DNA of 64,000 nucleotides from NCBI GenBank assembly GCA_016186645.1, contig JACPLF010000007.1:126651-190650 (forward strand), written 5' to 3'. Below the pieces are notes generated by a model that was not told the origin of the DNA, searched no databases, and was given only the letters and a program-made list of their open reading frames with translations. Origin of the DNA: Candidatus Levyibacteriota bacterium (GTDB lineage: Bacteria; Patescibacteriota; Microgenomatia; Levybacterales; UBA12049). The first letter of the stretch is position 1. The number at the start of each line of letters is the position of its first letter. This document shows positions 9,403-42,810 of the stretch, in pieces. Both the position numbers and the translations under genes were made by a program.

Positions 9403-11147
9403 AATATCTACCATTATTTTTAATTTTAATTCTTGCTTTTATCTTGAGGGTATACGGACTAAATTGGGATCAAGGATTTCATTTGCACCCTGATGAACGG
9501 GCAATTGTAATTGCCTCTATACCCTTACAACTTCCTACCAATATTTCGGAACTTTTATCTGTCCAAAGCCCTTTAAATCCTCACTTTTTTGCATATGGGA
9601 GTTTACCAATGTATCTTCTTAAAGGGGTTGCTGTTCTCTTAACACCTTTTTATCCTCTTGCCTCATCATATGATCATATTAATTTAGTCGGACGTTTCCT
9701 CTCTGTTATTTTCGACATGGGAACTATTCTTATTATTTTTCTTCTGGGACAAAAACTTTTTTCAAGAAAAGTTGGACTAATAGCTGTATTTTTTTATACT
9801 ATAAGTGTTTTCCCTATCCAAGCTGCGCATTTTTATGCTGTTGATACCCCTCTTACTTTCTTTATTTTAGCAACTCTTTATATGCTTATTAGTTTCTATG
9901 AAAATCCTACAAAGAAAAAAGCTCTTTTTGTGGGGATATTATTTGGAATGTCTCTTGCAACGAAAACAAGTGCTTTAGTTCTGATAATGTCAATTGGAGC
10001 AGCATTAATTTCAGATTTTGTTTTGATATTTCTAAGAATTCCCCACCGACCTCATATTTGGTTTCCTCACATCCCTAAACTCATAAAAAAACTTTTAATA
10101 GAAGGTTTAATTATTTTAATATCAACAGTTATTTCTTTTATTATTTTTGAACCTTATGCTCTTTTGGATTTTAAGGAATTCTCAAGACAAACTCTGGAGC
10201 AATCGCAAATGACACATAATCCTTTCGCTTTCCCTTTTACCCTTCAGTACGTTGGAAAAATTCCATATTTCTATGAATTAAAAAATATTTTCTTTTGGGG
10301 TCAAGGACCGATTATTGCGACAATTTCTTTTTTGGGAACACTGTATATTAGTTTTCACCTAATAAAGAGACACCTCGGATGGTGGCGAAGCAACGACTTC
10401 GACTCCTCCGAGGTGGACAAGAGATGGGCACAAGAACTTATTCTTTTAATTTTTTTCTTAAGTTATTTTATTGTGGTTGGAAAATTTGCAGTCGGCTGGA
10501 TGCGCTACATGCTCCCTCTCTATCCTCTCCTTTCTCTTTTCGCAGCAGTTCTTGCTTATAAACTTCTAATTTTAATTAAGCGCAAATTTGGTTATTGGTA
10601 TTTATTTGTAGTATTGGTATTTATTTGTAGTATTTTATACTGGCCTTTATCTTTCGTGAATATTTATACAAAACCAAACACTCGCGTTTTGGCATCTGAG
10701 TGGATTAATCAAAATATTCCAGTAGGACCAACTCTTGCAATAGAACACTGGGATGATTCCCTTCCCTTGTTTGGCCAAGAAAAATATAAAATGCTTACAC
10801 TTCCGCTTTATGATCCCGATACTTCTGAAAAATGGAAAACAATAAATCAGGAATTATCAAAAACCGATTACATTATTATTGCTTCCAATCGACTTTATAC
10901 GCCACTTATGCGTTTGACAGATTGCAAAAAATTACCGGTGGGAAGATGCTATACGCAAACTTCTGAATATTATAAAAAACTATTTAGCGGATCTCTGGGT
11001 TTTAAGAAAGTAGCTGAATTCACATCGTATCCTAAATTTAGCTTCCCACTTGTCAAGTGGGAGCACGAAATAAATGATTCCTCAGCAGATGAATCTTTTA
11101 CGGTATACGATCATCCAAAAGTCCTAATTTTTCAGAAAATTCCTTGA
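9399..11147 (+). CDS. GT-C fold membrane glycosyltransferase (GT39/PMT_2-like), tandem paralog
   Basis: 582 aa; VYGLNWDQGFHLHPDERAIVIAS loop motif; ATGA start/stop overlap with the upstream paralog. Confidence 0.55.
   Translation: MKYLPLFLILILAFILRVYGLNWDQGFHLHPDERAIVIASIPLQLPTNISELLSVQSPLNPHFFAYGSLPMYLLKGVAVLLTPFYPLASSYDHINLVGRFLSVIFDMGTILIIFLLGQKLFSRKVGLIAVFFYTISVFPIQAAHFYAVDTPLTFFILATLYMLISFYENPTKKKALFVGILFGMSLATKTSALVLIMSIGAALISDFVLIFLRIPHRPHIWFPHIPKLIKKLLIEGLIILISTVISFIIFEPYALLDFKEFSRQTLEQSQMTHNPFAFPFTLQYVGKIPYFYELKNIFFWGQGPIIATISFLGTLYISFHLIKRHLGWWRSNDFDSSEVDKRWAQELILLIFFLSYFIVVGKFAVGWMRYMLPLYPLLSLFAAVLAYKLLILIKRKFGYWYLFVVLVFICSILYWPLSFVNIYTKPNTRVLASEWINQNIPVGPTLAIEHWDDSLPLFGQEKYKMLTLPLYDPDTSEKWKTINQELSKTDYIIIASNRLYTPLMRLTDCKKLPVGRCYTQTSEYYKKLFSGSLGFKKVAEFTSYPKFSFPLVKWEHEINDSSADESFTVYDHPKVLIFQKIP
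10374..10413. repeat. hairpin element (cctcgga ... tccgagg) in-frame within the GT-C gene
   Basis: 7-bp inverted repeat flanking cgacttcgactcc, a core shared with the uvrD/guaA element family; encodes ...LGWWRSNDFDSSEVDK.... Confidence 0.5.
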
Positions 11148-12224: not shown

Positions 12225-12791
12225 ATGAATATTGGATTTGATTTAGATAAAATATTTATTAATTATCCTCCTTTTGTTCCATCAAAAATTATTGATTTAT
12301 TATATAAAGGAAAACCGCGTGCGGAATTGGAATATCGTATACCGTCAAGATTGGAGCAGATTATTAGAATATTCAGCCACCACCCTATATTTAGATCTCC
12401 TATAGCTGAAAACATGAATTATGTTAAAGACTTAGCTTTACAGAATGAAAATAAATATTATCTTATTTCCAGTAGATTCAGCTTTTTGGAGAAAAAAACA
12501 ACAGAACTTATAAAGCGTCTCAGCCTAGATAAAATATTTAATGCGATGTATTTCAACTACAATAATGAACAGCCTCATCTTTTTAAAAACGGAGTGCTAA
12601 AGAAGTTAAAACTTGATATGTACATTGACGATGATTTGCAACTTTTGGAATATCTAGGGAATAAAAATCCTAAAATCAAATTTTTCTGGTTGAATAAGAA
12701 GTTTAGCAGATCATTGAAAAAAAATTTATTTGCTATAAAAAACATTTCGGAAATGTTCACCCCGCACCAAAATGGTGCAGGGTTCAAATAA
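12225..12791 (+). CDS. hypothetical protein, possibly degenerate HAD-like (NT5C-type) hydrolase
   Basis: MNIGFDLDKIF resembles HAD motif I (DxD); YIDDDL resembles motif IV; weak. Confidence 0.3.
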   Translation: MNIGFDLDKIFINYPPFVPSKIIDLLYKGKPRAELEYRIPSRLEQIIRIFSHHPIFRSPIAENMNYVKDLALQNENKYYLISSRFSFLEKKTTELIKRLSLDKIFNAMYFNYNNEQPHLFKNGVLKKLKLDMYIDDDLQLLEYLGNKNPKIKFFWLNKKFSRSLKKNLFAIKNISEMFTPHQNGAGFK

Positions 12792-15069
12792 TATGCTCCT
12801 CTCGGATTTGCTTAATATTTTCCAATGGTGGGCAACATTTTTTTTTGCTGGCGTTATCTTTATTCCCATAACAACTTTGATCTTTCCCAACTTTTTCGAT
12901 AAGGGTTATATTTTTGCGAAAGTTATAGGAATAGCATTAATAAGTTATACAATTTTTGTTTTAGGGTTTTTAAAACTACTTCCTTTTGAAACGCAAAATC
13001 TCTACATAATTCTAGGATTGTTTATTCCTATCAATTTATTGATTGGGAGAAAAAGTAAACTCAATTTCAAGCAGATACTCCCAATAATTATTATAGAAGA
13101 ATTTTTATTCGCAGCAATTCTTTTGTTTTGGTCTTTTATCCATGCCCACCAACCGGACATTCATGGGCTGGAAAAATATATGGATTATGGATTTATAAAT
13201 TCTATTTTAAGAGCTAAGTATTTTCCTCCTTTAGATATGTGGCTTACACCCTACCCTATTAACTATTATTATTTTGGGCATTTAGTAACTGCTGTTTTGA
13301 CAAAGCTTTCATTTCTTTCGTCATCAATTACTTTCAATTTAACGCTTTCAACAATCGCTGCATTTACTTTTACAGGTGCATTTTCAATTGGCGCAAATCT
13401 CCTATATTTTTTAAACAAAAACGGTAAAAATTCGAAATTACCAATAATCGGAGGCATTCTTACTGGACTTATACTAGGTTTTGCAGGAAACCTGCATACA
13501 GTTTATTTATTTTTCAAGCCTTATGAAAATGAAAATCCTGTACCTTTTTGGCAGTTAATCTTTTCTCCTAATACATTTCCAAATAGCTATTGGTATCCAA
13601 ATGCAACGCGCTTCATCGAAAACACTATTCACGAATTTCCAATCTATTCCTCTGTTGTTTCCGATCTGCATGGCCACGTTCTAGACATACCTTTTGTACT
13701 GCTAACAATAGCTATTCTTTTATCAATATTTTTTAGATTTAATAATCAATCCTCAATTCAAAATTTAAAATTCAAAATTCAAAGTGACAATTCAAAATTC
13801 AAAATCTTAAACTTTGAGTTTCCGTTTTTAACTTTTAACTTTTCACTTTTAACTTTGCTAGCATTTTTGCTAGCAATTATGTATATGATCAATGCTTGGG
13901 ACGGAATAATATATTTCTTATTGACAGCAATCGTAATTGCCTATGTCAAGCTAAAGTCAATAATACAAATTTCTCCCCACCAAAGTATTAAGTATTATGT
14001 ATCAAGTATTAAACAATCAAAGTACCTAATACCTACTACTTTATACTTAATACTTATTTTTGTTGGGTTTTTCCTTTTTACTTTACCTTTTAATCTTAAT
14101 TTCAAGCCTTTTGCTTCGGGGATTGGCGTACTTTGTGCGCCAAAATTTCTAACAGACATAGGACAATTTGGACCTTTCCTTTTTGAGCCAGACCATTGCC
14201 AACATTCACCTTTATGGCAATTATTTATTCTATATGGCTTTTTCTATTTTTGGATTTTTGGATTTTTAGTTTTTAAAATTAGAAATTTTTCTCCACCCGA
14301 TATCTTTGTATTGATTCTAATCCTGTTATCCGCTCTTCTTATTATCATTCCTGAATTTATATATGTAAAAGATATTTATCCTGCACACTACAGAGCAAAC
14401 ACCATGTTCAAACTTGTATATCAGTCATTCATGATGCTTTCTATCTCCTCGGGCTATATAATGGTTAGGCTAGTATCAAGTATTAAGTATTACGTATTAA
14501 GTATCGAGAAAAAAATTCTTTATGTCTTATACTTTATACCTGCTACCTTATACTTAATACTGGTATTCTTTTATCCTTATTTTGCGATTAATTCCTACTT
14601 TGGAAATTTAAAAACTTACCATGGTCTTGATGGAACAAGTTATCTTAAGCCACTTTATCCAAATGACTATGAAGCCATTTTGTGGATTAATAAAAACATT
14701 AAAGGACAACCAATTATTCTTGAAGCGCAGGGAGATTCGTATACCGACTATGGTCGCGTATCAGCCAATACCGGACTACCAACTGTTTTAGGATGGACTG
14801 TTCATGAATGGCTTTGGCGCGGAACCTATGATATTCCTTCCCCTCGGATCGAAGAAGTTGCAAAAATGTACGAATCCGATAATTCGAAAGAGATAGAATC
14901 CTTGTTAAAAAAATATAAAGTTTCGCTTATATTTATTGGTGAGTTAGAAAGACAAAAATATCCAAATCTTAATGAGGAAAAATTTCAGCTTTTAGGAAAA
15001 ACTATTTATCAAAAAGGCGATACAAGGATATTCCAGTCGATCACTGAAGAGGACAATCGCCAATTTTAA
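12772..15069 (+). CDS. large polytopic membrane protein (possible GT-C/DUF2298-like), carrying in-frame repeat insertions
   Basis: 765 aa, many TM helices, C-terminal soluble domain; internal tandem repeats and two inverted-repeat insertions (see repeat features). Confidence 0.45.
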   Translation: MVQGSNNMLLSDLLNIFQWWATFFFAGVIFIPITTLIFPNFFDKGYIFAKVIGIALISYTIFVLGFLKLLPFETQNLYIILGLFIPINLLIGRKSKLNFKQILPIIIIEEFLFAAILLFWSFIHAHQPDIHGLEKYMDYGFINSILRAKYFPPLDMWLTPYPINYYYFGHLVTAVLTKLSFLSSSITFNLTLSTIAAFTFTGAFSIGANLLYFLNKNGKNSKLPIIGGILTGLILGFAGNLHTVYLFFKPYENENPVPFWQLIFSPNTFPNSYWYPNATRFIENTIHEFPIYSSVVSDLHGHVLDIPFVLLTIAILLSIFFRFNNQSSIQNLKFKIQSDNSKFKILNFEFPFLTFNFSLLTLLAFLLAIMYMINAWDGIIYFLLTAIVIAYVKLKSIIQISPHQSIKYYVSSIKQSKYLIPTTLYLILIFVGFFLFTLPFNLNFKPFASGIGVLCAPKFLTDIGQFGPFLFEPDHCQHSPLWQLFILYGFFYFWIFGFLVFKIRNFSPPDIFVLILILLSALLIIIPEFIYVKDIYPAHYRANTMFKLVYQSFMMLSISSGYIMVRLVSSIKYYVLSIEKKILYVLYFIPATLYLILVFFYPYFAINSYFGNLKTYHGLDGTSYLKPLYPNDYEAILWINKNIKGQPIILEAQGDSYTDYGRVSANTGLPTVLGWTVHEWLWRGTYDIPSPRIEEVAKMYESDNSKEIESLLKKYKVSLIFIGELERQKYPNLNEEKFQLLGKTIYQKGDTRIFQSITEEDNRQF
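13755..13855. repeat. tandem simple repeats (aattcaaa)n then (ttttaac)n in-frame within CDS
   Basis: aattcaaaatttaaaattcaaaattcaaagtgacaattcaaaattcaaaatc ... ttttaacttttaacttttcacttttaacttt; encodes QNLKFKIQSDNSKFKILNFEFPFLTFNFSLLTL. Confidence 0.7.
13984..14055. repeat. inverted-repeat element (agtattaagtat ... atacttaatact) inserted in-frame, copy 1
   Basis: Termini agtattaagtatt and atacttaatact are reverse complements; a diverged second copy lies at 14472-14562 in the same gene. Confidence 0.55.
14472..14562. repeat. inverted-repeat element (agtatcaagtattaagtatt ... tacttaatact), copy 2
   Basis: Same terminal inverted repeats as copy 1; encodes VSSIKYYVLSIEKK...ATLYLIL paralleling ISPHQSIKYYVSSIKQ...TTLYLIL. 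Confidence 0.55.
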
Positions 15070-18677: not shown

Positions 18678-19662
18678 TCACCCATTACAATCTGCTGCGT
18701 GGGGTGAATTTAGAAAAAAAACTGGAATAAAAGTAATAAAAATTAATAGAACCCAAATAACAATTCACAAGGTTCCTCACACACCCTGGACAATTGGCTA
18801 TGTCCCAAAAGGTCCGCTTCCAGACAAAGAAATGATTTCAGAACTTAAGAGAATCGGGAGAGAGAAAAAATGTGTGTTTATTCAGCTGGAACCAAATGTA
18901 TTAATTGAAAATTCTAAATTGAAAATTGAAAATTTAGGTCTTAAGCCAGCCGCTCATCCTTTGTTTACAAAATATACTTTTGTGTTGGATTTAACAAAGT
19001 CCGAAGTGGAATTGCTGAAAGAAATGCATCCAAAGACTAGATACAACATAAAAGTAGCGCTCAAACACGGTGTTAAAATTGTTCAGGATAATTCGAATGA
19101 AGCTTTTGAAACCTATTTAAAATTGACAGAAGAGACAACAAGAAGACAAGGTTTTTATGCGCATACAGAAAAATACCATAGGCTAATGTGGGAAACATTA
19201 AAAAATGAAAAATTAAAAATGAAAAATGAAAAATTGGATACTGATAAACTTACTGCTCATCTCTTATTGGCTAAGTATAGTCCAAACTCTCAACTCTCAA
19301 CTTTCAATTCTCAACTCGTTCTGGCTGCTTGGATTTTGTTTGTTTATAAAGATACCCTTTATTATCCATATGGCGCATCAAGCAGTTTACATCGGGAAAC
19401 AATGGCATCAAATCTAATAATGTGGGAAGCAATAAAGTTTGGAAAAGAATTAGGTCTTAAAAAATTTGACATGTGGGGAGCCTTAGGGCATGATCCTTCT
19501 ACAAATGACCCTTGGTATGGATTCCACAAATTCAAACAAGGATATGGGCCAAAACTTACTGAATTTGTTGGAAGTTTCGATCTGGTAATAAATCCGTTTT
19601 TTTATGAGATGTATAAAATAGCAGACAAAATTAGGTGGGCACTTCTGAAAATTAAAAAATGA
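18661..19662 (+). CDS. FemAB-family peptidyltransferase (peptidoglycan interpeptide bridge formation)
   Basis: 333 aa, FemABX/GNAT-like fold signatures (...YYPYGASSS...MWEAIKFGKELGLKKFDMWG); carries three in-frame simple tandem repeats. Confidence 0.55.
   Translation: MKALTNHPLQSAAWGEFRKKTGIKVIKINRTQITIHKVPHTPWTIGYVPKGPLPDKEMISELKRIGREKKCVFIQLEPNVLIENSKLKIENLGLKPAAHPLFTKYTFVLDLTKSEVELLKEMHPKTRYNIKVALKHGVKIVQDNSNEAFETYLKLTEETTRRQGFYAHTEKYHRLMWETLKNEKLKMKNEKLDTDKLTAHLLLAKYSPNSQLSTFNSQLVLAAWILFVYKDTLYYPYGASSSLHRETMASNLIMWEAIKFGKELGLKKFDMWGALGHDPSTNDPWYGFHKFKQGYGPKLTEFVGSFDLVINPFFYEMYKIADKIRWALLKIKK
19201..19235. repeat. (gaaaaat)n tandem repeat in-frame in FemAB gene
   Basis: aaaaatgaaaaattaaaaatgaaaaatgaaaaatt encodes KNEKLKMKNEKL; related (ttgaaaa)n tracts at 18916-18935 and 33526-33562 and in intergenic DNA at 45826-45856 and 53825-53856. 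Confidence 0.65.
19286..19317. repeat. (ctctcaa)n tandem repeat in-frame in FemAB gene
   Basis: aactctcaactctcaactttcaattctcaactc encodes NSQLSTFNSQLV. Confidence 0.65.
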
Positions 19663-21023
19663 AAAAGCTTATTCCTCTTGCCCTTTTTATATTATTTTTT
19701 CTTTTATTAAAAGTGGACAGCAATTCCATAAGATTATCCGATACGAATATCTATTTCAATATTGCATACCAAATCTTCAATGGAAAATTATTGTATAAAG
19801 ACATTTTTTTCTCTAATTTTCCCTTTTTTTCATATGTATCTTCTTTATATTATTTAATAACGGGAAAAAATATAGAACTTTTTTATTTTACTTCTTCTTT
19901 GGAAATTGCGATAATTACAACTTTTATATATCTGGTAGTTTACAAAAAAACAAAAGATTATATTATCTCAATAATTAGTGTAGTCTTATATATTTTTTCT
20001 TTTATTGTGCTGTCTACATCCGATCACCAAACAGGAATTTTTACGGCATCCTTATTTGCAATATTGGGATTTTATTTTCTAAAGGAAAAAGCGTTATTGT
20101 CCGGAGTCTTCCTTGCAGCATCATTTTTAACCAAAGCATATTTTCTCCCCATAGTCCTTGCTTTTTATGGCTATCTCCTTCTACAAAAAGACAAAGAGAA
20201 AATAATTAAATTTAGTATTGGATTTATTTTAGTATCGTTATTTATTCTATTGCCTTTTTTACTGCTTGCTCCAAAAGAATTTCTCTCCGATATTTTTGGC
20301 TTTTCTCTTACCCGCCCGGTAGGTCTCTCAAAATTAAATATTATGTGGTTTTTTATAACAAAAGATTTTCTGCTTTTTATTCTGTTGATCTTTAACCTAT
20401 TAAATATTAGAAAAAATATTTTATTTGGCATAATGTCTATGTTCTCCATAATTTTCTTCTTTGGATACCAAGATATATATTATCTATATCTAAATTTTTT
20501 ACCACCATTCCTTTGTATTTCCCTCTATGAATTTGTTTTCTTTTTAAAAAATAAGTTTAATCTTCAAAAACTAGTTATCCCAACCATAATTTCTTTTTTT
20601 ATTTTGCTTAACCTATTTACTTATGTTTCCTCCTATCGAAATCTAGGAAAAATCGAAGATGTAAGCAAAATCACGGAAATAATAAAGAAAGAGAAACCTG
20701 ATTATTTGTATGGCGTTAATGACATTACTCCGGCATTAATAGCTATTACGAAAATTCCTGCATTAGAAAATGTTAATGATGCGCATGAATATTTTTTTAC
20801 AAGAGGAGTCTATGATAAAAATATATTAACAGATAAAGCAATTAAAACTAAAACAATAATTGTTACTCATGGAGCAGATTATCCGGACTACGATATTAAA
20901 CAAGACATTTTAGACAACATTTTTGTAAAAGAGGCCATTTATAAAAATTGCAAAAAAATTTTAAGTGTTCCTGCGATATCCGAAGGAGACGCTAATAGGA
21001 TAAATTTATTTAAGTGTTATTAA
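19659..21023 (+). CDS. polytopic membrane protein, probable GT-C glycosyltransferase (ArnT/PMT-like)
   Basis: 454 aa, at least 10 TM helices, C-terminal soluble domain; same architecture as other GT-C genes in the window. Confidence 0.4.
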   Translation: MKKLIPLALFILFFLLLKVDSNSIRLSDTNIYFNIAYQIFNGKLLYKDIFFSNFPFFSYVSSLYYLITGKNIELFYFTSSLEIAIITTFIYLVVYKKTKDYIISIISVVLYIFSFIVLSTSDHQTGIFTASLFAILGFYFLKEKALLSGVFLAASFLTKAYFLPIVLAFYGYLLLQKDKEKIIKFSIGFILVSLFILLPFLLLAPKEFLSDIFGFSLTRPVGLSKLNIMWFFITKDFLLFILLIFNLLNIRKNILFGIMSMFSIIFFFGYQDIYYLYLNFLPPFLCISLYEFVFFLKNKFNLQKLVIPTIISFFILLNLFTYVSSYRNLGKIEDVSKITEIIKKEKPDYLYGVNDITPALIAITKIPALENVNDAHEYFFTRGVYDKNILTDKAIKTKTIIVTHGADYPDYDIKQDILDNIFVKEAIYKNCKKILSVPAISEGDANRINLFKCY

Positions 21024-21549: not shown

Positions 21550-21837
21550 TTAGATTTTAAATATTACTTTTCCAACAATTTCTTTTTTAGAAACCCAACC
21601 GATTTCCAAACTATCCTTATCATTATCTCCCCTTACAAAATAACTTTCTGTACCAGCTGATGGATTTGCTTGAAGGATTCTCTTGATCAATATTTTTTTA
21701 TTTTTTTTCAATGCTATTATATCTCCAACTTTAGGTTTGAAAATTAAAAAAGGAATACTGCTTACTAATACCTTATCGCCCATAGATATAGTTGGTTCCA
21801 TACTATGGCCAACAATCTTAAAACTAGAAAGAAGCAT
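21550..21837 (-). CDS. sodX: Ni-SOD maturation peptidase SodX (S26 signal-peptidase-like)
   Basis: GHSMEPTI (catalytic Ser motif of S24/S26) and KR general base; sits immediately downstream of sodN, as in characterised sodN-sodX operons. Confidence 0.65.
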   Translation of the reverse strand: MLLSSFKIVGHSMEPTISMGDKVLVSSIPFLIFKPKVGDIIALKKNKKILIKRILQANPSAGTESYFVRGDNDKDSLEIGWVSKKEIVGKVIFKI

Positions 21838-22325
21838 TATTTATAAACAACAATTTCTCGCTGCGTTGGATAAGGGGACTTTACGCGAATAGGAACAAGG
21901 TTCTTTGTTTTATAAAATATTTCAGAAATCTTTAAAACCGTCTCAAGTAACTGCTCTGCCGATGCCATATCTATAGTCTGGCGTGTTTTGGCTGAAAGTT
22001 TTACTGCGCTTGCAATTAACTCTTTCAATTTAGGGTATTCCTTAAAATGCTCTTCCTTAAAATAATCATTTTCTAATGTCCCCAGTTCCTCCTCAATCAT
22101 ATTGCCATGATCATCTTTCACATGAGTGATCCTTGCAACATCATGCTCTGCTTTTGTTTCATCTACTCTTTTTAACTCGCTTAGTAATTGGGTCATACGT
22201 ATAACGGTATGAGCTCCAACTTGTGCAGCATGAGGATCGTAAATACCACAGGGGATATCGCAGTGGGCATAAGCTATCTGCGTTGGAAGAATCCTGGAAA
22301 TTGCAATAAACAAGCTTGCCATCAT
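21837..22325 (-). CDS. sodN: nickel superoxide dismutase precursor SodN
   Basis: 20-aa propeptide then HCDIPCGIYDP, the Ni-hook motif His-Cys-x-x-Pro-Cys-Gly-x-Tyr that becomes the mature N-terminus. Confidence 0.85.
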   Translation of the reverse strand: MMASLFIAISRILPTQIAYAHCDIPCGIYDPHAAQVGAHTVIRMTQLLSELKRVDETKAEHDVARITHVKDDHGNMIEEELGTLENDYFKEEHFKEYPKLKELIASAVKLSAKTRQTIDMASAEQLLETVLKISEIFYKTKNLVPIRVKSPYPTQREIVVYK

Positions 22326-34636: not shown

Positions 34637-35788
34637 GTGAATTCTTATCACAAGCTCCTACGTTCAATTGGACTTATCATAGTATTAATAATAGTAGGGA
34701 CTATTTTAACTAAGTATGCTCCTATAAAAACTGCTACTATCCCCATATCCGTAACTACTCAGGATGTTCCGGAAATGGCAGATATTTTAGATCCTAGTAA
34801 TCAAGAAAAAAGATTAAAAGCAGCAAGAAAATTAGTAGAAAGAGTTGATGTCGAACAGGCTTTGGAGATTTTGGAACACTCTAGCCTACCGCATACCGGA
34901 GAAGGTCATTTGGTTGTACATCAAATTGGATTTTATGCTTACAAAAAATATGGGGTGGATTCAATTCTAAAATGCAAAGATTACTTTCTTTATGCTTGCT
35001 ATCATGGGACAATAATTGAAGCAGCGTCCAACGAGGGTTTTGAAGCGATTAAAAAAATGACGGATAAATGTAAAGCATCTCCTGTCAGATATTTCCAGTG
35101 CGTTCATGCTGCGGGCCATTCAATTCTCGCCATGTGGAATTATGATATGCCCAAAGCATTAGAAACTTGCGATTCGATTTATGAAAAAGAAACGGAATTT
35201 CCAGAGGCCTTATCATCTTGTCATAATGGCTCTTTTATGGAAAACCTTTTCGGAGTACATGATTGGGGCAGTGGCAAAGAACCCGTAAGAGATTGGCTGT
35301 CTGATGATCCGTATTTTCCCTGCAACTATTTTGGAGAAAAATATCAAAGGGGATGTTGGCTCAACCAAGCAGCTAGGATTTATCAGATGAACAAAGGAGA
35401 CATGGTTAAAACTTCTCAAATTTGCCAGGAAGCTGGCAATTCAGAATACGTGGCCTGGTGTATGGACAATGTAGCAAGACAAATTCATCCATTAACTCTG
35501 GGAGATCCTGCCAAATCTTTTGAACTTTGTCAGCAAGAAGGAGTCGATTGGTATGATAATTGCCTGGTAGTAAATGCCGGATCATTTTATTCGGTTGGAG
35601 GACGCGACCAGGCAATATTTATCTGTCAAAATGTACCCCCGCATTTAAAGAATGAATGCTACCAAAGAGTAATTGGGCAAATTGTTTCTGACCCAATTGA
35701 TGTCGGACAAAAACAAGCTCTTTGTCAAAAACTTGAGCAGCCGTTCAATAATCATTGCTTCGCAGGCCTGACCCCTGTAAATTTTTAA
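34637..35788 (+). CDS. membrane-anchored extracytoplasmic Cys-paired repeat protein (paralog of the repeats in 39605..42115)
   Basis: N-terminal TM anchor; about 18 Cys in pairs; motifs CYHGTIIEAAS, CVHAAGHSILAMW, PYFPCNYFGEKYQRGCW, shared with the downstream 836-aa protein. Confidence 0.5.
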   Translation: MNSYHKLLRSIGLIIVLIIVGTILTKYAPIKTATIPISVTTQDVPEMADILDPSNQEKRLKAARKLVERVDVEQALEILEHSSLPHTGEGHLVVHQIGFYAYKKYGVDSILKCKDYFLYACYHGTIIEAASNEGFEAIKKMTDKCKASPVRYFQCVHAAGHSILAMWNYDMPKALETCDSIYEKETEFPEALSSCHNGSFMENLFGVHDWGSGKEPVRDWLSDDPYFPCNYFGEKYQRGCWLNQAARIYQMNKGDMVKTSQICQEAGNSEYVAWCMDNVARQIHPLTLGDPAKSFELCQQEGVDWYDNCLVVNAGSFYSVGGRDQAIFICQNVPPHLKNECYQRVIGQIVSDPIDVGQKQALCQKLEQPFNNHCFAGLTPVNF

Positions 35789-35798
35789 GGTTAATATT

Positions 35799-36446
35799 AT
35801 GGAACCAGAAATCCAGAAATTATTGCATTCGTTTTTTGACAAATTTGAGTTGAAATTATTTGACAAAGGAAAAACGATTATAGGACCCACGAATGATAAG
35901 ATATTTTTTTTGACCAAGGGAGTAGTAAAAATGCTTGGCCTTTCAAAAAAAGGAAAGGATCTAACTCTAAATATATATAAGGCATATTCATTATTTCCTA
36001 TATCTTTGATTTTTAATATGCGAAATAAATATATATTTAAATCATTAACGGAAACGCAGGGATATTTCGCCCCTAAAAAAAAATTAGATCTGTTCATCAG
36101 CAAAAATCCAATTGTGCTTTTCGATCTATTAAAAAGAGTTTATCAGGGTTTAGACGGATTTTTTATGCTTTGGGAAGCTCTGCTTTCAGGAAATTCTCTC
36201 TATAAAGTATTGACTCAGTTAATTATTTACGCGAAGCGGTTTGGTCAAAGAAATCACAACACAATTACTTTTGATTGGCATCTTACCCACGGTCAATTAG
36301 CTTCTCAAACAGGCCTTGCCCGAGAATCAGTCACCAGGCAAATTAAAAAACTTCAGAATAAAGGCTTGATTGGTTACTCCGGCAAAAAGATATTTATTTA
36401 CGACCTTTCTAAATTGGAAAAAGAACATTCTTCCTTGTCTAAATGA
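35799..36446 (+). CDS. Crp/Fnr-family transcriptional regulator
   Basis: cNMP-binding-like beta-barrel region then C-terminal HTH (LTHGQLASQTGLARESVTRQIKKLQNKGLI). Confidence 0.7.
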   Translation: MEPEIQKLLHSFFDKFELKLFDKGKTIIGPTNDKIFFLTKGVVKMLGLSKKGKDLTLNIYKAYSLFPISLIFNMRNKYIFKSLTETQGYFAPKKKLDLFISKNPIVLFDLLKRVYQGLDGFFMLWEALLSGNSLYKVLTQLIIYAKRFGQRNHNTITFDWHLTHGQLASQTGLARESVTRQIKKLQNKGLIGYSGKKIFIYDLSKLEKEHSSLSK

Positions 36447-36480
36447 AATTCCAAATTACCTCTTGACAAACGATAAGAAT

Positions 36481-36496
36481 TGTGACCAAAATTACA
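36481..36496. promoter_or_regulatory. candidate Crp-type binding site TGTGA-N6-TTACA
   Basis: tgtgaccaaaattaca, one mismatch from TGTGA-N6-TCACA; lies between the Crp/Fnr gene and the start (36507) of the small-TM/giant-protein operon. Confidence 0.3.
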
Positions 36497-36506
36497 ATAG
36501 GGGAAA

Positions 36507-36785
36507 ATGGATAATCAAAATAAAATAACATCTATCTTATTTCTTCTTAAAAAAAAGAAAATACTTATTGGAGTACCATTGCTTCTGCTTTCTGTCGGAG
36601 TAATTTATGTTGGGCTAGTGCGATTTGGAGTTATCAAAGATCCTTTCCCTCTTCCTAATATACCTTTTCTTCAAACAGTCCCACAAGTTTCTATAAAAAC
36701 AGAATACAAAAATCCTTTTGATAAAAAAACCCAGTACGTAAATCCATTTGACACTTATAAAAATCCTTTTGTAATTGCAAAATAA
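36507..36785 (+). CDS. small membrane protein with C-terminal NPFD repeats, coupled to the giant protein
   Basis: 92 aa; one TM; C-terminus KNPFDKKTQYVNPFDTYKNPF; TAATG overlap with the next gene. Confidence 0.35.
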   Translation: MDNQNKITSILFLLKKKKILIGVPLLLLSVGVIYVGLVRFGVIKDPFPLPNIPFLQTVPQVSIKTEYKNPFDKKTQYVNPFDTYKNPFVIAK

Positions 36786-39553
36786 TGATAATAAGTAAAA
36801 TTTTAACATTGAACCCTATTAAGACATTACTTCTGGCATTGGCTGCGATGTTTTTATTATTTCTCGTAACAACTTCTGTTTTTTCACAAAGCCCAACAAT
36901 CCAACCAACAACTGCTACAGGACCGTCTCTTAACCTTGCTTTTCCCATAGAAGAATTGGGCGCATGCAAGAGTCTGGAAGAATGTAGCAATTATTGTCAG
37001 GATCCTGTTCACCAAAACAGTTGTACTAATTTTGCAAAGAAAAATGGATTCTATCAGGATGACCAAACAGCCTATGGAGATGATAAATTTTATCAGGATG
37101 TAAAAGAGGAATTAGGATGCGATACGCACGAATCTTGTTTTAACTTTTGTTCAGAGCCTGCGAATTTTGACACATGCGAATCCTATGCCAAAAGAAATGA
37201 AATACCAGGCGGCTATGTCGGAGAACCGGATAAGCCTGAATATTTAACCATTGCTAAGCAAGTTTTAGGTTGTGATTCACCTGTAAGCTGCTCAAATTTC
37301 TGCGATGATCCCGCAAATGCTGATAAATGTTCTAGCTTTGCTGATCAAGTAGGACTTTTAGGCGGAAATACTCAAGAAGGTCCTGGTGGATGTCAGACTC
37401 CCGGCACTTGCGGAGCATATTGTTCTGATCCTGCAAATTATGTGGAATGTTCTAAATTTGCTCCGGGAGGGGGTAATTTTGCAGGACCAGGCGGGTGTAA
37501 TAGTGAAGCAACATGTCGAAGTTATTGCGATCAAAATCCTGCTAATTGCCGAAGTTATGCTCCCGGCTCAAGTGGGGCATATGGGACTTTTAATTGTGTC
37601 GAAGGTCAGACTCATGGACCAGGCGGACTTTGTACCAATGTGAACGTTATGGCTTTGGCTGCTGCCTGCGTTGGAGCTGGTAAATTTTGGGATGGAACTT
37701 CCTGTCAGGATACCGCTCCTGTAGGTATATCTCCAGAACTGCCAAGTGCGCATTTTGAACAAAGACCGGAAATGGGCAATTGCTCAACTCCTGGTCAATG
37801 TTATGATTATTGTAAGGATAATCTTGTGAATGGTGCGAGCGTTTGTCCGGGATTCGATGCTACAGCATCCCGTCCAACCGACAGCTATACACCATATCTA
37901 TATTATACTCCCGGAACTGAGGTTAAATTTGAACCAAAGCCGGAGATGGGTAACTGTGATTCTCCTGGCGCTTGTTATGACTATTGTAAAGAAAATCCCG
38001 ATAAATGCGAAGGATTTGATCCTAAGGCTCCAGTACCAATAGACATTTGGATTCCAAATACTTACTACACTCCTCCTACAGATGGTATCTATTCTACTCC
38101 GCCAACAACCAATTTCTACACAACGCCAATGTACTACACTCCGCCAGTCGGCTCTACTTATACTACTCCTCAATACTACACGCCTGGCACATATTCTACT
38201 CCAAGTTACTATACACCGCCTATAGGATCGAACTATACTACGCCTAACTACTATACTCCTTGGACTAATTATGCGACACCAACCGGAGAGTATCCGACTC
38301 CGACTTATTCAACACCAACTTACTACACTCCTCCTGGTGGATCTAATTACACAACGCCTTACTATTACACTCCCCCTCATTACACAACGCCTTACTATTA
38401 CACTCCCGGCCAAGGTGGCTATGCGTCTAATTACACAACTCCTCCTGCCTATTCAACTCCTCCGCCATATGTAACTCCTCAGTATTACACGCCTTACACC
38501 GGCGGCGGTTATACAACTCCTGTTTACTATACACCGCCTGTTTACACAACCCCAACTTACTACACTCCTCCTGCAGGCTCGAACTACACCAGCCCAAGTT
38601 ATTACACGCCTCCTCCTCCTTATACAACACCAAATTACTATACTCCTGGCACTTACCCAACACCTCCTACTTATACATCTCCTACGGCTTATACGACGCC
38701 TAACTATCCAACTCCTCCATTAGGCAGTAACTATACCTCCCCTAGCTATTATTCGCCAGCAAGCTATCCAACACCAACTTATTACACACCAGGTTTTTAC
38801 CCAACACCTTATTATTACACGCCTTATTCAACACCCTCCTATCACACTCCTCCTGAAGGATCAACCTATACCAGCCCGACTTACTACACACCATATTCAA
38901 CGCCAAATTACTTTACGCCAACGTACTATTCACCTTCTTACTACACGCCTGGCGGAACCTACACAAGTCCTTATTATACTCCTGGAAGCGGTTACACATC
39001 CCCAACCTCAAATTATACAACTCCATCAACTAGCTATACTTCTCCATACTACAGTCCTTACGCAAGTCCATCATATTACACACCCTCAGACCCGAATTAT
39101 ACAACGCCGTCTTATCCAACGCCTTATTCCTATCCTACTCCGGGATCAACAACTTCTTATCCATACCCGACTCCTGGAACAGGATATTCTTACCCAACGC
39201 CAAGCGGCTATTATTACCCAACCCCATCAGACACTAGTTATCCTTCTCCATATACCGGCTATGCTTATCCAACGCCTGGAACTAGTTATTCTTACCCTTC
39301 GCCAACATACGGCACGCCTTCGGGAAGCTATTATTACCCAACACCCGGATCCGGATCTTATGGCACGCCATCATACGGCACCCCTGAATATCACACACCA
39401 AGCTATGGAACACCTTCAGAAAGCTACGGAACACCGAGTTATGGAACGCCATCGTATGGCACTCCTTCTGATTACCCAACCCCTCCCTTGGGAGTTTCCA
39501 CCTTCAATCCCGGATTATTACAGAATATCTGGAGCTTCCTTATCGGCAGATAA
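36785..39553 (+). CDS. giant secreted protein: seven 4-Cys modules followed by about 500 aa of Tyr/Thr/Pro-rich repeats
   Basis: Signal/TM at N-terminus; repeats of G-C-x4-C-x2-[YF]-C-x2-P-x-N-x2-3-C-x2-[FY]-A; then YYTPP / GSNYT[TS]P repeats; hydrophobic C-terminus. Confidence 0.6.
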   Translation: MIISKILTLNPIKTLLLALAAMFLLFLVTTSVFSQSPTIQPTTATGPSLNLAFPIEELGACKSLEECSNYCQDPVHQNSCTNFAKKNGFYQDDQTAYGDDKFYQDVKEELGCDTHESCFNFCSEPANFDTCESYAKRNEIPGGYVGEPDKPEYLTIAKQVLGCDSPVSCSNFCDDPANADKCSSFADQVGLLGGNTQEGPGGCQTPGTCGAYCSDPANYVECSKFAPGGGNFAGPGGCNSEATCRSYCDQNPANCRSYAPGSSGAYGTFNCVEGQTHGPGGLCTNVNVMALAAACVGAGKFWDGTSCQDTAPVGISPELPSAHFEQRPEMGNCSTPGQCYDYCKDNLVNGASVCPGFDATASRPTDSYTPYLYYTPGTEVKFEPKPEMGNCDSPGACYDYCKENPDKCEGFDPKAPVPIDIWIPNTYYTPPTDGIYSTPPTTNFYTTPMYYTPPVGSTYTTPQYYTPGTYSTPSYYTPPIGSNYTTPNYYTPWTNYATPTGEYPTPTYSTPTYYTPPGGSNYTTPYYYTPPHYTTPYYYTPGQGGYASNYTTPPAYSTPPPYVTPQYYTPYTGGGYTTPVYYTPPVYTTPTYYTPPAGSNYTSPSYYTPPPPYTTPNYYTPGTYPTPPTYTSPTAYTTPNYPTPPLGSNYTSPSYYSPASYPTPTYYTPGFYPTPYYYTPYSTPSYHTPPEGSTYTSPTYYTPYSTPNYFTPTYYSPSYYTPGGTYTSPYYTPGSGYTSPTSNYTTPSTSYTSPYYSPYASPSYYTPSDPNYTTPSYPTPYSYPTPGSTTSYPYPTPGTGYSYPTPSGYYYPTPSDTSYPSPYTGYAYPTPGTSYSYPSPTYGTPSGSYYYPTPGSGSYGTPSYGTPEYHTPSYGTPSESYGTPSYGTPSYGTPSDYPTPPLGVSTFNPGLLQNIWSFLIGR

Positions 39554-39604: not shown

Positions 39605-42115
39605 ATGTTCAAATTCTTCGCGTTACTCTTATTTCTCATTTTTCATTTTCCTGCCTCGCCGCCAGGCGGGTCTTTTTTCATTTCTCCTGTTTCTGCTCAT
39701 TCAGAAGTTGCGGTTATAGAAATGGTGCCTTATGGCTTTGTTCCTTCTGAAACAACTATTGATGTAAATTCAAGTGTAATTTTCATCAATAAAGATAGTC
39801 AACCAAGATGGCCTGCCAGCAATGTCCATCCGACTCATAATATATATCCCGAATTTGATCCAAAAAAACCAATTGAGCCCGGAGAATCATGGGCATTCAA
39901 GCCTAAAAGAATAGGAGAATGGAAATTTCACGATCATAATTTCCCCCATATGAGAGGAGTTTTAACTGTCGTTGATGAAGAAGGTTTTACTTCAGAGGAA
40001 AAAATAGAGTCCCCTTCTTTTGTTACTAAGTTTAAAAATGCAATTAACAATTTCTTTAATCAGATTAAAAACTTATTCGCTAAAAAAGCATTAAATCAAC
40101 AGGTACAATTACCTGATAAAGAAGGGTTCAAAAAACTATCTTATGATGCTCAATCTAAAATACTAGAAAAAATTGCGAGAAACAATGGTGCTTCAAAAGC
40201 TTGGGAATATGTGAAAGATGTTTTCAAAGGAGAAGGAGGATCTTCCGGCAACATTCATGATTTGGCGCATTTATCAGGTCTTTTGATATATGAAAAGAAT
40301 GGCTTTGAAGGAATTAAAGACTGCACTAGTAATTTTGCTTTTGGCTGTTATCATGGTTTTTTAGATACTGCTTTTGCCAAAAATTTGGACCATCTTTTGG
40401 ATGCAGAGAATGCTTGTTTGAAATTAGGCCCTACTAATTCCGGACCTGTTGCAAGCTGCATACACGGAATTGGACATGGAGTTGCTTCTTTTTATTCAAC
40501 GCAGGATTTGGAAAAATCTCTTGTTACCTGCAGGAAATTAAACCAAGGCAATGAATACTGTTTTGATGGAGTATTTATGGAATTTGTCCGCTCCGCGCCC
40601 GATTCATTTTTTAAAAGTAACGATCCCTACTACCCTTGCAACAGCTTGGAGGAAAAATATGGATATTCTTATTCATCTGCCTGCGGAAGAAATCAATCTT
40701 CCCTTTTAATGAGTAGATTTAATATGGGATTTGACGAAGTGGTTGGAATTTGTCTTTCTTCAACATCAAAACCTTTTAAAGAAAGTTGTTTCGACGCTCT
40801 AGGATTTTCTCTTGCTTCTTCTGGAGATGTTAACCAAATAATAGTAGGGTGTCAAAAGATGCAGATATCTGAATATATTAATAAGTGCGCAAAAGCTGCC
40901 GCAGGAGAGTTAGTTTTTCAGGAAATACCCGGATGGCCGGAAAAATCAAAAGAAGTTTGTAATGCATTTGAAAAAAGCGAAGAGTGTTTGCAAAACGTAG
41001 ATAGACTTATTAAGGAATATAACCTTCAAGTCCAAATCAACTTTACCCCAAAAGAACTCAATGAAGATATTAATTTATATGTAAGAAGCCAGATGAAAAA
41101 ATGTTATGAAACGGATGGCAGGGACGGATGCTACAAAGCCGTTGCTGACATATTGTATAGTCAGTTTGGTTTAGCCAAAACTCTTAATGTTTTTAAAGAA
41201 AACGAAGGATATGTAGAAATTTATGCAAGATGTCATGAGACAACTCATTATCTTTCCCGGCTGGAATATGAGAAGCAAAAGAGTATTGCCAAAGTTTATG
41301 CTCAATGTGATTCAACATGTCATGGAGGATGTTACCACGGAACACTTGAGGCATATCTTAAAGAAAAGACAAATGAGACTGGATTTAATCTAGTGAGTCG
41401 ATTTGCTAAAGTTTGCGGAAAACAAAGCGATTATCAGAAGCCTATCGAGTTTAATGAATGTCTTCATGGCATGGGACACGCAGCAATGTTTGTCACAGAT
41501 ATGGAACTTAAACAATCTTTAAAGCTTTGCGATACTATTGCTGATCAAGCGCATAAAGAAAGATGTTATACCGGAGTATTTATGGAAAATTCCTCATCCT
41601 CTACTTCTTTTGATCATGCAAGTATATACATTAAAAAAGATGATCCATTTTATCCATGCAATTCTTTAGAGGAAAAATATTTATCTTTGTGCTGGCAGTA
41701 TCAAAGTTCGTATTTTTCCATTATCAGTCACCAGGATTGGAAAAAAGTAGCAAGTCTTTGCCTGCAAATTCCTAATCAGTATCAAGATCGATGCTTTAGG
41801 ACTATCGGAACAAACCAAGTTGGTTTTACTCAATCTTTAGAAACCATGAAAAAAGATTGTGATCTTATGCCCTCTGAAAATTTTAAAGACATTTGTATTG
41901 CAGGCGTTGTTTCCTCTCTTTCCTATCGTTTTGTCGGAGACATGCGAAAAATGATTGACTTTTGCTCTCTTGTCTCTTCACAAAATAGAGAAAGCTGTTA
42001 CAAACAAATTGGTAATGGAGTTTCTGATTGGGATAGCAACAAAGATGTGGCAAAAAACCAATGTCAAAAAATTCCCGACCCCCAAGGCCAATCTTGGTGC
42101 CTGAGCGCAATATGA
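39605..42115 (+). CDS. secreted protein: N-terminal cupredoxin-like domain (Cys ligand replaced) plus two tandem Cys-paired repeat domains
   Basis: Signal peptide; EWKFHDHNFPHMRGVLTVVDE aligns to the amicyanin/pseudoazurin loop Y-x-C-T-P-H-P-F-M-R-G-K-V-V-V-E with Cys replaced; then two repeat units with CYHGF, CIHGIGHG, YPCNSLEEKY motifs. Confidence 0.55.
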   Translation: MFKFFALLLFLIFHFPASPPGGSFFISPVSAHSEVAVIEMVPYGFVPSETTIDVNSSVIFINKDSQPRWPASNVHPTHNIYPEFDPKKPIEPGESWAFKPKRIGEWKFHDHNFPHMRGVLTVVDEEGFTSEEKIESPSFVTKFKNAINNFFNQIKNLFAKKALNQQVQLPDKEGFKKLSYDAQSKILEKIARNNGASKAWEYVKDVFKGEGGSSGNIHDLAHLSGLLIYEKNGFEGIKDCTSNFAFGCYHGFLDTAFAKNLDHLLDAENACLKLGPTNSGPVASCIHGIGHGVASFYSTQDLEKSLVTCRKLNQGNEYCFDGVFMEFVRSAPDSFFKSNDPYYPCNSLEEKYGYSYSSACGRNQSSLLMSRFNMGFDEVVGICLSSTSKPFKESCFDALGFSLASSGDVNQIIVGCQKMQISEYINKCAKAAAGELVFQEIPGWPEKSKEVCNAFEKSEECLQNVDRLIKEYNLQVQINFTPKELNEDINLYVRSQMKKCYETDGRDGCYKAVADILYSQFGLAKTLNVFKENEGYVEIYARCHETTHYLSRLEYEKQKSIAKVYAQCDSTCHGGCYHGTLEAYLKEKTNETGFNLVSRFAKVCGKQSDYQKPIEFNECLHGMGHAAMFVTDMELKQSLKLCDTIADQAHKERCYTGVFMENSSSSTSFDHASIYIKKDDPFYPCNSLEEKYLSLCWQYQSSYFSIISHQDWKKVASLCLQIPNQYQDRCFRTIGTNQVGFTQSLETMKKDCDLMPSENFKDICIAGVVSSLSYRFVGDMRKMIDFCSLVSSQNRESCYKQIGNGVSDWDSNKDVAKNQCQKIPDPQGQSWCLSAI

Positions 42116-42145: not shown

Positions 42146-42454
42146 CTATTTAAATTGAACCTGGAGAGTAACATCCAAAGCGGCTGCTAGTCTTTTGAGC
42201 AAAGAAATAGAAGGGCTTGTATTGCCTTGCTCAACCCTGGAAATAACTGATTGAGTAGTATTCATTTTTTTAGCCAACTCTTTTTGAGTTATTTTATTTT
42301 TAATTCTGGCACGGATAATAGCCTTAGCAATTTCAAACTCAGGTTGAGATTCCTCGTAGAGCTTTTTAAACTCAGAGTCTTTTAGCATTTCTTTTTTTAG
42401 CACACTCCAGTCTTTCATAGATGTATTGTATCGCAAATTTGCGATATCTGTCAA
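42146..42454 (-). CDS. higA: HigA-type antitoxin, XRE-family HTH
   Basis: KITQKELAKKMNTTQSVISRVEQGNTSPSISLLKRLAAALDV (HTH_XRE); 4-nt overlap with the upstream toxin gene. Confidence 0.75.
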   Translation of the reverse strand: MTDIANLRYNTSMKDWSVLKKEMLKDSEFKKLYEESQPEFEIAKAIIRARIKNKITQKELAKKMNTTQSVISRVEQGNTSPSISLLKRLAAALDVTLQVQFK

Positions 42455-42810
42455 CTCCCCAATTTTCTTGATTGGTATTCCTTTAGTCTCTCCTCAGCTA
42501 TTTTTATCTCTTTCGGAGGAGTCTTTTGTTTTTTCTTTTTAAACCCATGTAGTAGTAGGAATATTTTCCCAGTTATGGTGATATAGAAAATTCTGATGCT
42601 ATCTGTTCCCAATATACGAAGTTCCCAAAGCGAGGTACCAACCAGTTTTTTAACATGAGGATATGCTCCTTCCAATCCAAATTCCTCTAAGAGATCAAGA
42701 GTTCTGGAAACCTTTAACCGTGTCTTCTTTTCTAAGGATTTAATAAATTCCTCAACTGGTATGTCGCCCCTGAGAGATTCATAAGCCTTAACTTTCCATT
42801 TATCATCCAT
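42451..42810 (-). CDS. higB: HigB-like toxin (RelE/ParE superfamily, phage Gp49-like family)
   Basis: LWELRILGTDSIRIFYITITGKIFLLLHGFKKKKQKTPPKEIKIAEERLKEY matches the Gp49-like pattern (ELR...R..Y......LLHGFKKKTQKTP..EI..A); toxin-first order typical of higBA. Confidence 0.7.
   Translation of the reverse strand: MDDKWKVKAYESLRGDIPVEEFIKSLEKKTRLKVSRTLDLLEEFGLEGAYPHVKKLVGTSLWELRILGTDSIRIFYITITGKIFLLLHGFKKKKQKTPPKEIKIAEERLKEYQSRKLGS

Follow-up and report, generated by a model that had tools for sequence, protein, structure and literature searches.

What do the two overlapping genes at positions 36507-39553 of this window, a 64,000-nucleotide stretch of contig JACPLF010000007.1 from Candidatus Levyibacteriota, encode, and how might their products act together? 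The preliminary description of the locus saw in the larger gene a secreted 922-residue protein with seven four-cysteine modules followed by a long Tyr/Thr/Pro repeat, and took it for a heavily glycosylated, possibly Tyr-crosslinked surface fibre or matrix protein. We tentatively favour another reading, to which we give slightly less than an even chance: that the products of the pair form a complex of two subunits in the cell envelope of an uncultured groundwater bacterium, a monoderm of the Microgenomates type within the Candidate Phyla Radiation (CPR). The pair belongs to an uncharacterised Microgenomates family of Cys-module proteins. We defined this family by a signal peptide; at least four to five helical modules of the form C-x5-C-x3-C-x6-10-C with LGC/GPGGC signatures; an amphipathic C-terminal tail with V-Q-G-x-S-T-x-R; and, immediately upstream, a gene for a small membrane protein with three NPF motifs. 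All four features are present here.

The large subunit gene (36785..39553, + strand) encodes 922 amino acids (aa), and its start codon overlaps the stop codon of the partner gene. The open reading frame (ORF) is identical, to the nucleotide, in the independent Logan assemblies of the single runs SRR12113430 and SRR12113420, and a 922-aa gene was called in both, which excludes an assembly artefact as the origin of the repeat tract. The protein begins with a Sec-type signal peptide (36785..36886; aa 1 to ~34) that has a Kyte-Doolittle 19-residue maximum of 2.55, a probable signal peptidase I site, VFS/QS, and no twin-arginine motif. An AxA-Q-like cleavage-site motif was found in 151 of the 191 complete family members. 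Judged by these features, the large subunit is a secreted protein predicted to be exported via Sec, in agreement with the preliminary description. After the signal peptide comes a core array of five 4-Cys helical modules (36965..37549; aa 61-255), which is kept throughout the family. It is followed by a separate insert (37595..37705; aa 271-307), previously overlooked, that contains four more Cys (271, 283, 295 and 307) at a 12-residue spacing and is predicted to form a β-hairpin and a helix. Modules 6 and 7 (37781..38008; aa 333-354 and 391-408) are of the MGNC-x5-CYDYC type and are found in a seven-module subclade and related forms. A Tyr/Thr/Pro stalk (38057..39484; aa 425-900) of 75 degenerate Y-x-[T/S]-P units with a terminal SYGTP run then leads to a conserved 22-aa tail, PLGVSTFNPGLLQNIWSFLIGR (39485..39550), the last segment of the protein. 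All of these segments are encoded on the + strand.

The seven modules lie at aa 61-80, 112-131, 163-182, 203-222, 238-255, 333-354 and 391-408. All seven fit C-x5-C-x3-C-x6-10-C. Their number had been correctly given, but the first spacing is C-x5-C and not C-x4-C, and the stricter pattern proposed for them, with P-x-N and [FY]-A, holds for modules 2-4 and leaves the remaining modules outside it. In an alignment of 100 homologs, the four Cys of the module were invariant, a pattern far beyond chance. The residues conserved across the family were Cys, Gly and core aromatics, with invariant LGC and GPGGC signatures, and a lead-in, K-Y-G-x-T-F-P-I-x-x-L-G-x-C, preceded the five core modules family-wide. 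No His/Asp/Glu constellation and no catalytic-looking residues were conserved in this alignment.

The preliminary description could not assign the module to a family and named a match to a well-known domain, for example of an EGF-like or carbohydrate-binding family, as an outcome that would speak against its reading. We found none. The Cys-module protein matched no Pfam-A family at E ≤ 1, and its sole NCBIfam match, to an Fe-S subunit model, was at chance level (E = 0.14; 10.8 bits, where the cut-off is 349). Ten distant family members had no match besides Big_13 in two. A profile of the 100 homologs had no match at E ≤ 10 among PDB sequences, and the best Foldseek match in the PDB was no better than E = 5.4. 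The AlphaFold2 model of aa 41-440, calculated from the 100-homolog alignment, resembled helical beads on a string, with a mean predicted local distance difference test score (pLDDT) of 76. In this 400-aa model, pLDDT was 86-92 in the block of modules 1-3 and 65-72 across modules 4-5; the predicted template modelling score (pTM) was 0.36 because the linkers are flexible. Module 3 modelled alone with its leading helix (47 aa) formed three helices with a mean pLDDT of 86 and a pTM of 0.63. The module is thus an undescribed, compact three-helix unit of ~45 residues for which no structural relative was found here.

Homologs of the large subunit are numerous. With the N-terminal 400 aa as the query, we found at least 130 homologs, all annotated 'hypothetical' and none with a Pfam domain; their informative source names were Daviesbacteria, Chisholmbacteria, Levybacteria, Roizmanbacteria and Microgenomates. 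An exhaustive profile search of 1.84 billion cluster representatives (clusters at 50% identity) yielded 1,819 clusters at E ≤ 1e-3, 1,045 of them at E ≤ 1e-30. Among GTDB species representatives, 65 loci were recovered, and the informative titles were all of Microgenomates-type CPR (Davies-, Roizman-, Levy-, Gottesman-, Woese- and Blackburnbacteria). Of the GTDB loci, about half (e.g. L007, L008, L010-L012 and L014) come from TPA records titled 'uncultured Gammaproteobacteria bacterium isolate binchicken_...'. These loci are syntenic with the CPR loci and up to 63% identical to them, which argues that the gammaproteobacterial label is wrong or a placeholder. The family thus appears to be large, unannotated and lineage-restricted. 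The literature that we searched contained no description of it; the one possible trace is a brief reference to 'a secreted cysteine-rich protein' of Roizmanbacteria.

The Cys content of the family bears on how the modules may be stabilised. The number of Cys was even in 186 of 191 complete members, and in 57 of the 191 it left a remainder of 2 when divided by 4. The pattern C-x(1-3)-NP-x(1-3)-C, with no Cys at position −4, had 154 matches, an upper bound since some of the printed examples overlap ordinary modules. Many of these matches were free-standing two-Cys half-modules, 'FC[K/R]-x-NP-x-KC', equivalent to C3-C4 of a full module. Cys parity and half-modules favour disulfides over metal centres and are hard to reconcile with Cys4 metal sites. 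We therefore infer, at the tentative level of the model as a whole, that two disulfides lock each module; the probable pairing, from the sequence pattern, is C1-C2 and C3-C4. In one groundwater relative, DsbB- and DsbA-family genes lie ~5 kb upstream of the pair (L002/L003 1936-3008). Among the families reported to be enriched in CPR are MdbA-like oxidoreductases and VKOR (bioRxiv 10.1101/335083).

The small partner gene (36507..36785, + strand), directly upstream of the Cys-module gene, encodes a 92-aa protein predicted to be a type-II (N-in), single-pass membrane protein. Its transmembrane helix, ILIGVPLLLLSVGVIYVGLV (36561..36620, + strand; aa 19-38), is preceded by KKKK and has a Kyte-Doolittle 19-residue maximum of 2.54. 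By the positive-inside rule, the basic N-terminus and single transmembrane helix indicate an N-in, C-out orientation. The C-terminal peptide, YKNPFDKKTQYVNPFDTYKNPFVIAK (36705..36782, + strand), would accordingly be extracytoplasmic. It contains three NPF motifs within the consensus Y-x-N-P-F-[D]-K-x-x-Q-Y-V-N-P-F-x-x-Y-K-N-P-F-D-x-L-K. All three were invariant in 60 of 60 orthologs, with a 10/7 spacing in 53, and the last NPF starts seven residues from the C-terminus in 45 of the 60. The partner is 100% identical to HYW62_03835 at NCBI, from a 'Candidatus Levybacteria bacterium' metagenome-assembled genome (MAG). Its ~178 relatives in databases are all unnamed, and the protein matched no family of Pfam or NCBIfam.

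The two genes are tightly paired, a relation that extends over about 60 species-level genomes. In the window, stop and start overlap in TAATG (36783-36787), which bears out the translational coupling to a small NPF-repeat membrane protein that had been proposed. The loci of three distant homologs each have an 80-aa gene that shares 4 nt with the large one. Counting small ORFs that end −30 to +120 nt from the start of the large gene, we found a same-strand ORF of 75-130 aa before the large gene in nearly every fetched locus in which upstream sequence was present. Clustering of the neighbours at 67 loci recovered the large protein in 59 and the small protein in 57, usually overlapping and mostly by 4 nt. 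No other neighbour was generally conserved at these loci, the next commonest families occurring in 12 of the 67 each. In L001 and L043, the pair has been duplicated in tandem, and each large copy has its own small gene; the second, paralogous pair of small NPF and Cys-module genes lies near the first in both (the regions concerned are L001 13360-15524 and L043 5642-7899 and 7896-9544). Given this obligate adjacency, translational coupling, co-duplication and invariant exposed peptide, a physical 1:1 complex is the most economical reading, and we propose, as tentatively as for the model overall, that the two subunits interact.

Upstream of the small gene are an AGGGGA Shine-Dalgarno-like motif (~36499-36504) and a promoter-like site, TTGACA-18-CAAAAT, with 10 of 12 matches (36463..36492, + strand). 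Such sites are no more numerous in the region than in shuffled sequence, so this one is weak evidence. In L002/L003, a FemAB-family gene and a gene for a multi-pass membrane protein of 158-170 aa stand directly upstream of the small gene; in L004, a 149-aa protein of similar sequence occupies the position of the multi-pass protein.

The tail of the large subunit had not been noticed in the preliminary description. As a consensus across the family, it reads V-[Q/K]-G-[V/A/I]-[S/A]-T-x-R and continues with [L/I]-[L/F]-[Q/E/D]-x-[I/L]-[L/W/F]-[D/N]-[F/L]-[L/F] and K/R. It was found in 88 of 121 sequences, and those without it include visibly truncated fragments. In the protein studied here, the motif reads P-L-G-V-S-T and the last residue is R; most family tails end in K or R. 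The Kyte-Doolittle 19-residue maximum of the tail is 0.94, as compared to 2.72 and 2.54 for two LPPTG proteins encoded in the window (440-1315 and 6542-7858). The tail is therefore too polar to span the membrane. It contains no LPXTG-type pentapeptide, and its motif is not followed by a hydrophobic, membrane-spanning segment of ~20 residues. The large subunit has neither a transmembrane nor an LPXTG-type anchor.

In the two-subunit complex that we favour, Sec would export the large subunit, the signal peptide would be removed, and the chain would fold into a string of small three-helix modules with two disulfides apiece. The type-II small subunit would present its triple-NPF peptide outside the cell and hold the large subunit at the membrane non-covalently, via the tail of the latter, its modules or both. 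As a stalk or spacer, the ~476-aa Y-x-T/S-P tract, extended and non-globular, would cross the cell wall, and the disulfide-stapled modules would form an array for binding or adhesion, exposed on the cell surface. The tail-near-membrane orientation, like an adhesive or structural role for the modules, would share the tentative standing of the model.

Several observations weigh against this reading. None of the 254 family proteins is a natural fusion of the small and the large protein. The hydrophobic moment of this tail is 0.19, as compared to 0.43-0.76 in typical family tails. Rather than the tail, the NPF peptide could bind the modules: a comparison of distance matrices gave a correlation of NPF-block divergence with module divergence of r = 0.63 (partial r = 0.57), a value confounded by phylogeny and segment length, and with tail divergence of r = 0.38 (partial r = 0.22), likewise confounded by phylogeny. 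Finally, the conserved V-Q-G-x-S-T-x-R looks like an enzyme recognition site, which would better fit covalent sorting.

According to this last possibility, which we consider improbable, the tail would serve in covalent sorting, as a signal of a new kind: an enzyme dedicated to it, a transpeptidase or protease, would cut at or near V-Q-G/x-S-T and join the protein to a lipid or the wall, with the NPF protein as an accessory or adaptor. The sharp conservation of V-[Q/K]-G-[V/A/I]-[S/A]-T-x-R, the basic residues at the end of the tail and its position after a low-complexity, wall-spanning-like tract are all consistent with such a signal, as is the succession of motif, hydrophobic stretch and K/R, which echoes the layout of LPXTG, PEP-CTERM and PGF-CTERM signals. 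However, the hydrophobic stretch is only ~11-13 residues long and is broken by Q, D or N, in keeping with the low Kyte-Doolittle maximum, and the conserved neighbours include no sortase- or exosortase-like gene. Moreover, genuine sorting signals are usually common to several unrelated substrates. When we searched all ORFs of 70 loci (~760 kb) and of the 64-kb window with a hidden Markov model of the tail, the Cys-module family alone was matched, which argues against a general sorting signal.

Similarly improbable, in our estimate, is a reversed orientation of the large subunit. Amphipathic helices can bind membranes, and the NPF peptide might dock on membrane-proximal Cys modules while the stalk projects the amphipathic C-terminal helix outward as a probe for insertion into the membrane of a putative host, or for contact with that host, serving episymbiosis. 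The divergence of the NPF block, which tracks the modules more than the tail, is in line with this arrangement; so is the fact that the N-terminal modules and the NPF block are the pair's two most conserved parts. The confounding of that correlation applies equally here. In many family members, however, the spacer is only 0-50 aa long, such that the tail would not project anywhere.

The stalk is central to the fibre or matrix role originally proposed for the protein. A Tyr/Thr/Pro-rich repeat region does follow the modules: its 476 aa are 23.5% Tyr, 23.1% Thr, 22.9% Pro and 12.4% Ser. The true repeat unit is Y-x-[T/S]-P, in higher-order units of ~11, 14 and 25 residues, and the autocorrelation of the stalk peaked at lags 5, 6, 11, 14, 17 and 25. 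The suggested likeness to YSPTSPS heptads was not borne out, as there is no 7-residue period and the lag-7 autocorrelation (0.14) is at background level. At the DNA level, the stalk contained only short, degenerate arrays of 15-18 nt, indicating an old, diverged repeat and not a recent expansion or slippage artefact.

Across the family, the stalk is the exception. In 60 listed family genes, 48-80 Y-x-[T/S]-P units were confined to ten seven-module genes of 773-966 aa; in the remaining members, the last Cys was separated from the tail by 0-170 aa rich in P/S/T/Q/E. An eleventh Tyr-rich member, the ortholog in the Daviesbacteria MAG L001, is split within the repeat into two ORFs (8001-9695 and 10230-10700), of which the first keeps 23 units and the second carries the conserved tail; the split is probably an assembly gap or a frameshift. 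The Y/T/P tract spans 257-519 aa in subclade members where it could be measured, and the position of the spacer, between modules and tail, is constant. Judged by this distribution, the Tyr-rich tract is a form of a variable spacer that is specific to a subclade of ~11 species. A search with the tract alone matched only the Cys-module family and one cohesin/dockerin-like secreted protein. The latter, P0279, is an unrelated, 264-aa metagenome protein with a precomputed Dockerin_1 match (PF00404), an N-terminal domain that is cohesin-like by eye and, as an interdomain linker, six copies of SYGTP. The pentapeptide repeat thus seems reusable as a linker in these communities. Overall, the position and variability of the tract and its use as a linker elsewhere argue for a stalk or spacer rather than a functional core, and the succession of modules, tract and tail is what a wall-spanning stalk looks like.

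These data render distinctly improbable the idea of a heavily N-glycosylated, Tyr-cross-linked extracellular fibre or matrix protein. The abundance of Tyr in the stalk, its N-Y-T triplets, a cluster of membrane glycosyltransferase genes in the window and a cupredoxin-like protein encoded immediately downstream can all be cited for it. The 'many' sequons, however, amount to seven N-Y-T, each inside the sub-repeat G-S-N-Y-T-[T/S]-P and thus belonging to the repeat unit itself. The extended PglB sequon, D/E-x-N-x-S/T, was not found among them, although no oligosaccharyltransferase was looked for: six of the seven have G, A or T at −2, and the only one with an acidic residue there (S-D-P-N-Y-T) has Pro in the −1 position. 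With 19.7 bits, the cupredoxin match falls short of the Pfam cut-off of 27, and there is no sign of polymerisation. Furthermore, the Tyr-rich tract is missing from most of the family and so cannot explain the conserved pair; it is a subclade-specific spacer that sits between conserved modules and a conserved tail.

The preliminary description also linked the locus to genes for GT-C glycosyltransferases and LPXTG proteins. Such genes do exist in the window. Three encode PMT_2-type GT-C candidates (7855-9402, + strand, Pfam 29.5 bits; 9399-11147, + strand, 52.7 bits; and 19659-21023, + strand, 25.8 bits, just below the 26.1-bit cut-off) and one a DUF2298 membrane protein (12772-15069, + strand, E = 1e-96). 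The two LPPTG surface proteins mentioned above, both encoded on the + strand, each combine L-P-P-T-G and a hydrophobic segment with a sorting signal at the C-terminus; a cohesin-like domain is found in one, and Big_13, CarboxypepD_reg and further Ig-like domains in the other. The GT-C and DUF2298 genes cluster with the LPPTG proteins and not with the Cys-module gene, from which the GT-C and LPXTG genes are separated by more than 15 kb. No GT-C family occurred among the recurrent neighbour clusters 2-8 of the 67 loci (clusters 9-21, with at most six loci each, were not annotated). PMT-type enzymes are, moreover, O-mannosyltransferases and do not N-glycosylate. Actinobacterial members of the PMT family add O-linked mannose to Ser/Thr where Sec substrates are rich in Pro. 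An acceptor-like Thr/Ser-Pro region is present here together with PMT_2 matches in the window, although PMT_2 also covers GT-C enzymes with non-protein substrates. By analogy, O-glycosylation of the stalk is plausible, and its Thr/Ser may be so modified; Tyr cross-linking of the stalk is conjecture. Overall, what held of the earlier interpretation was that the protein is secreted, that its module lacks a known family and that it is coupled to the small gene; the link of the locus to GT-C and LPXTG genes, the N-glycosylation, the fibre or matrix role and the heptads found no support.

The pair is flanked by genes for two Cys/His-rich paralogs (34637-35788 and 39605-42115, + strand; BLASTP E = 1e-22 between them) with recurring C-Y-H-G and C-x-H-G-x-G-H motifs. 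The 836-aa paralog comprises two copies of a ~300-aa unit and the cupredoxin-like N-terminus. Neither paralog had an above-cut-off match in Pfam, NCBIfam or PDB sequences. Judged by their sequences, they represent another uncharacterised exported family and are possibly metal-binding. Directly upstream of the pair, a further gene encodes a Crp/Fnr-family regulator (35799-36446, + strand; HTH_Crp_2, E = 2.5e-13), which is also part of the arrangement in the Daviesbacteria L001. The regulator family was found in 8 and the Cys/His-rich family in 12 of the 67 loci; the arrangement of regulator and paralogs, syntenic in the Daviesbacteria MAG, occurs in 8-12 of them. That the modules are Cys4 metal or Fe-S centres, forming with the Tyr tract and these neighbours an extracellular redox or metal-handling chain, is very improbable: the four invariant Cys per module, the cupredoxin-like and Crp/Fnr-type neighbours and the chance-level Fe-S subunit match suggest it, but Cys parity, the two-Cys half-modules and a signal of the Sec rather than the Tat type rule it out as a leading model, the modules have no canonical cluster motif (CxxCxxCxxxCP, CxxC pairs, CxxC knuckle or ferredoxin motif) and no conserved His, Asp or Glu ligands, and the Cys/His-rich neighbours are present at few of the loci.

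Elsewhere in the window, a nickel superoxide dismutase is encoded at 21837-22325 (− strand; Sod_Ni, E = 6.7e-34). The adjoining 95-aa ORF (21550-21837, − strand) contains G-H-S-M-E-P-T and, read by eye, resembles an S26 signal-peptidase-type maturation protease. Two overlapping small ORFs (102 and 119 aa) at 42146-42810 (− strand), the downstream one XRE-type helix-turn-helix-like by eye, may be a toxin-antitoxin module.

CPR bacteria, or Patescibacteria, make up a large share of bacterial diversity, and many are thought to live attached to other cells. To our knowledge, almost nothing is known about their surface proteins. If the two-subunit complex is an anchoring and display system, it would represent a new mechanism of envelope attachment and could provide a handle for labelling or capturing uncultured Microgenomates cells. 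Two short peptides, the block with three invariant NPF and the conserved V-Q-G tail, are directly testable for binding. The compact, disulfide-stapled module of ~45 residues could also interest protein engineers. If the protein is only a generic wall protein, the value of these findings would be limited to annotating a large family of unknown function. It is possible, if doubtful, that the pair is a CPR-specific mounting system in which the triple-NPF peptide is a non-covalent socket for the partner's tail or modules, the stapled modules are a new adhesion or recognition domain contacting host cells or minerals, and the Tyr stalk of one subclade is a cross-linkable or adhesive spacer.

Proteins of this general kind are already familiar from monoderm surfaces, where a signal peptide and repeat domains are combined with a low-complexity stalk and an attachment element at the C-terminus. 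What is new here, and undescribed in the libraries and papers searched, is the module domain, the tail and the obligate NPF partner. Comparison with known systems illustrates both aspects. LPXTG surface proteins of Gram-positive bacteria likewise combine a Sec signal, folded repeats, a Pro/Thr/Ser-rich wall-spanning region and a C-terminal signal with a basic end; the large subunit differs from them in having no LPXTG and no transmembrane-length segment, a tail found in one family, and a small membrane partner encoded with it. The Pmt O-mannosylated linkers of Actinobacteria are similar in their Sec export and dozens of Thr-Pro and Ser-Pro, and there are three candidate PMT_2-type enzymes in the genome; here, however, the PMT_2 genes lie far from the pair and are not conserved alongside it, and the high Tyr content is atypical of actinobacterial linkers.

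The modules recall the twin-CX3C and twin-CX9C proteins (small Tim, CHCH) as very small helical units, probably stabilised by two disulfides, with a CX3C pair on one helix. By contrast with the twin motif, each module has one CX3C, with flanking spacings of x5 and x6-10. In composition and in its short, degenerate repeats of Tyr, Pro and hydroxy residues, the stalk is reminiscent of plant extensins, mussel foot proteins and the Tyr-rich proteins of spore coats. Yet it has no SPPPP or decapeptide consensus, no detectable homology to these proteins and no adjacent peroxidase or tyrosinase gene, and the Tyr tract is a subclade-specific spacer instead of a conserved core. The partner brings to mind the recognition of NPF by EH domains in eukaryotic endocytosis, in which clustered NPF on a flexible tail may similarly be read by small helical domains; this is analogy only, since the modules have no EF-hand/EH signature or Pfam match, and compartment and kingdom differ. 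The tail has a parallel in amphipathic C-terminal membrane anchors such as those of E. coli PBP5 and PBP6, where an exported protein without a transmembrane segment likewise ends in a short amphipathic helix. The present tail departs from these anchors in its low hydrophobic moment, in the V-Q-G-x-S-T-x-R motif that precedes the helix, and in that a dedicated partner gene accompanies it.

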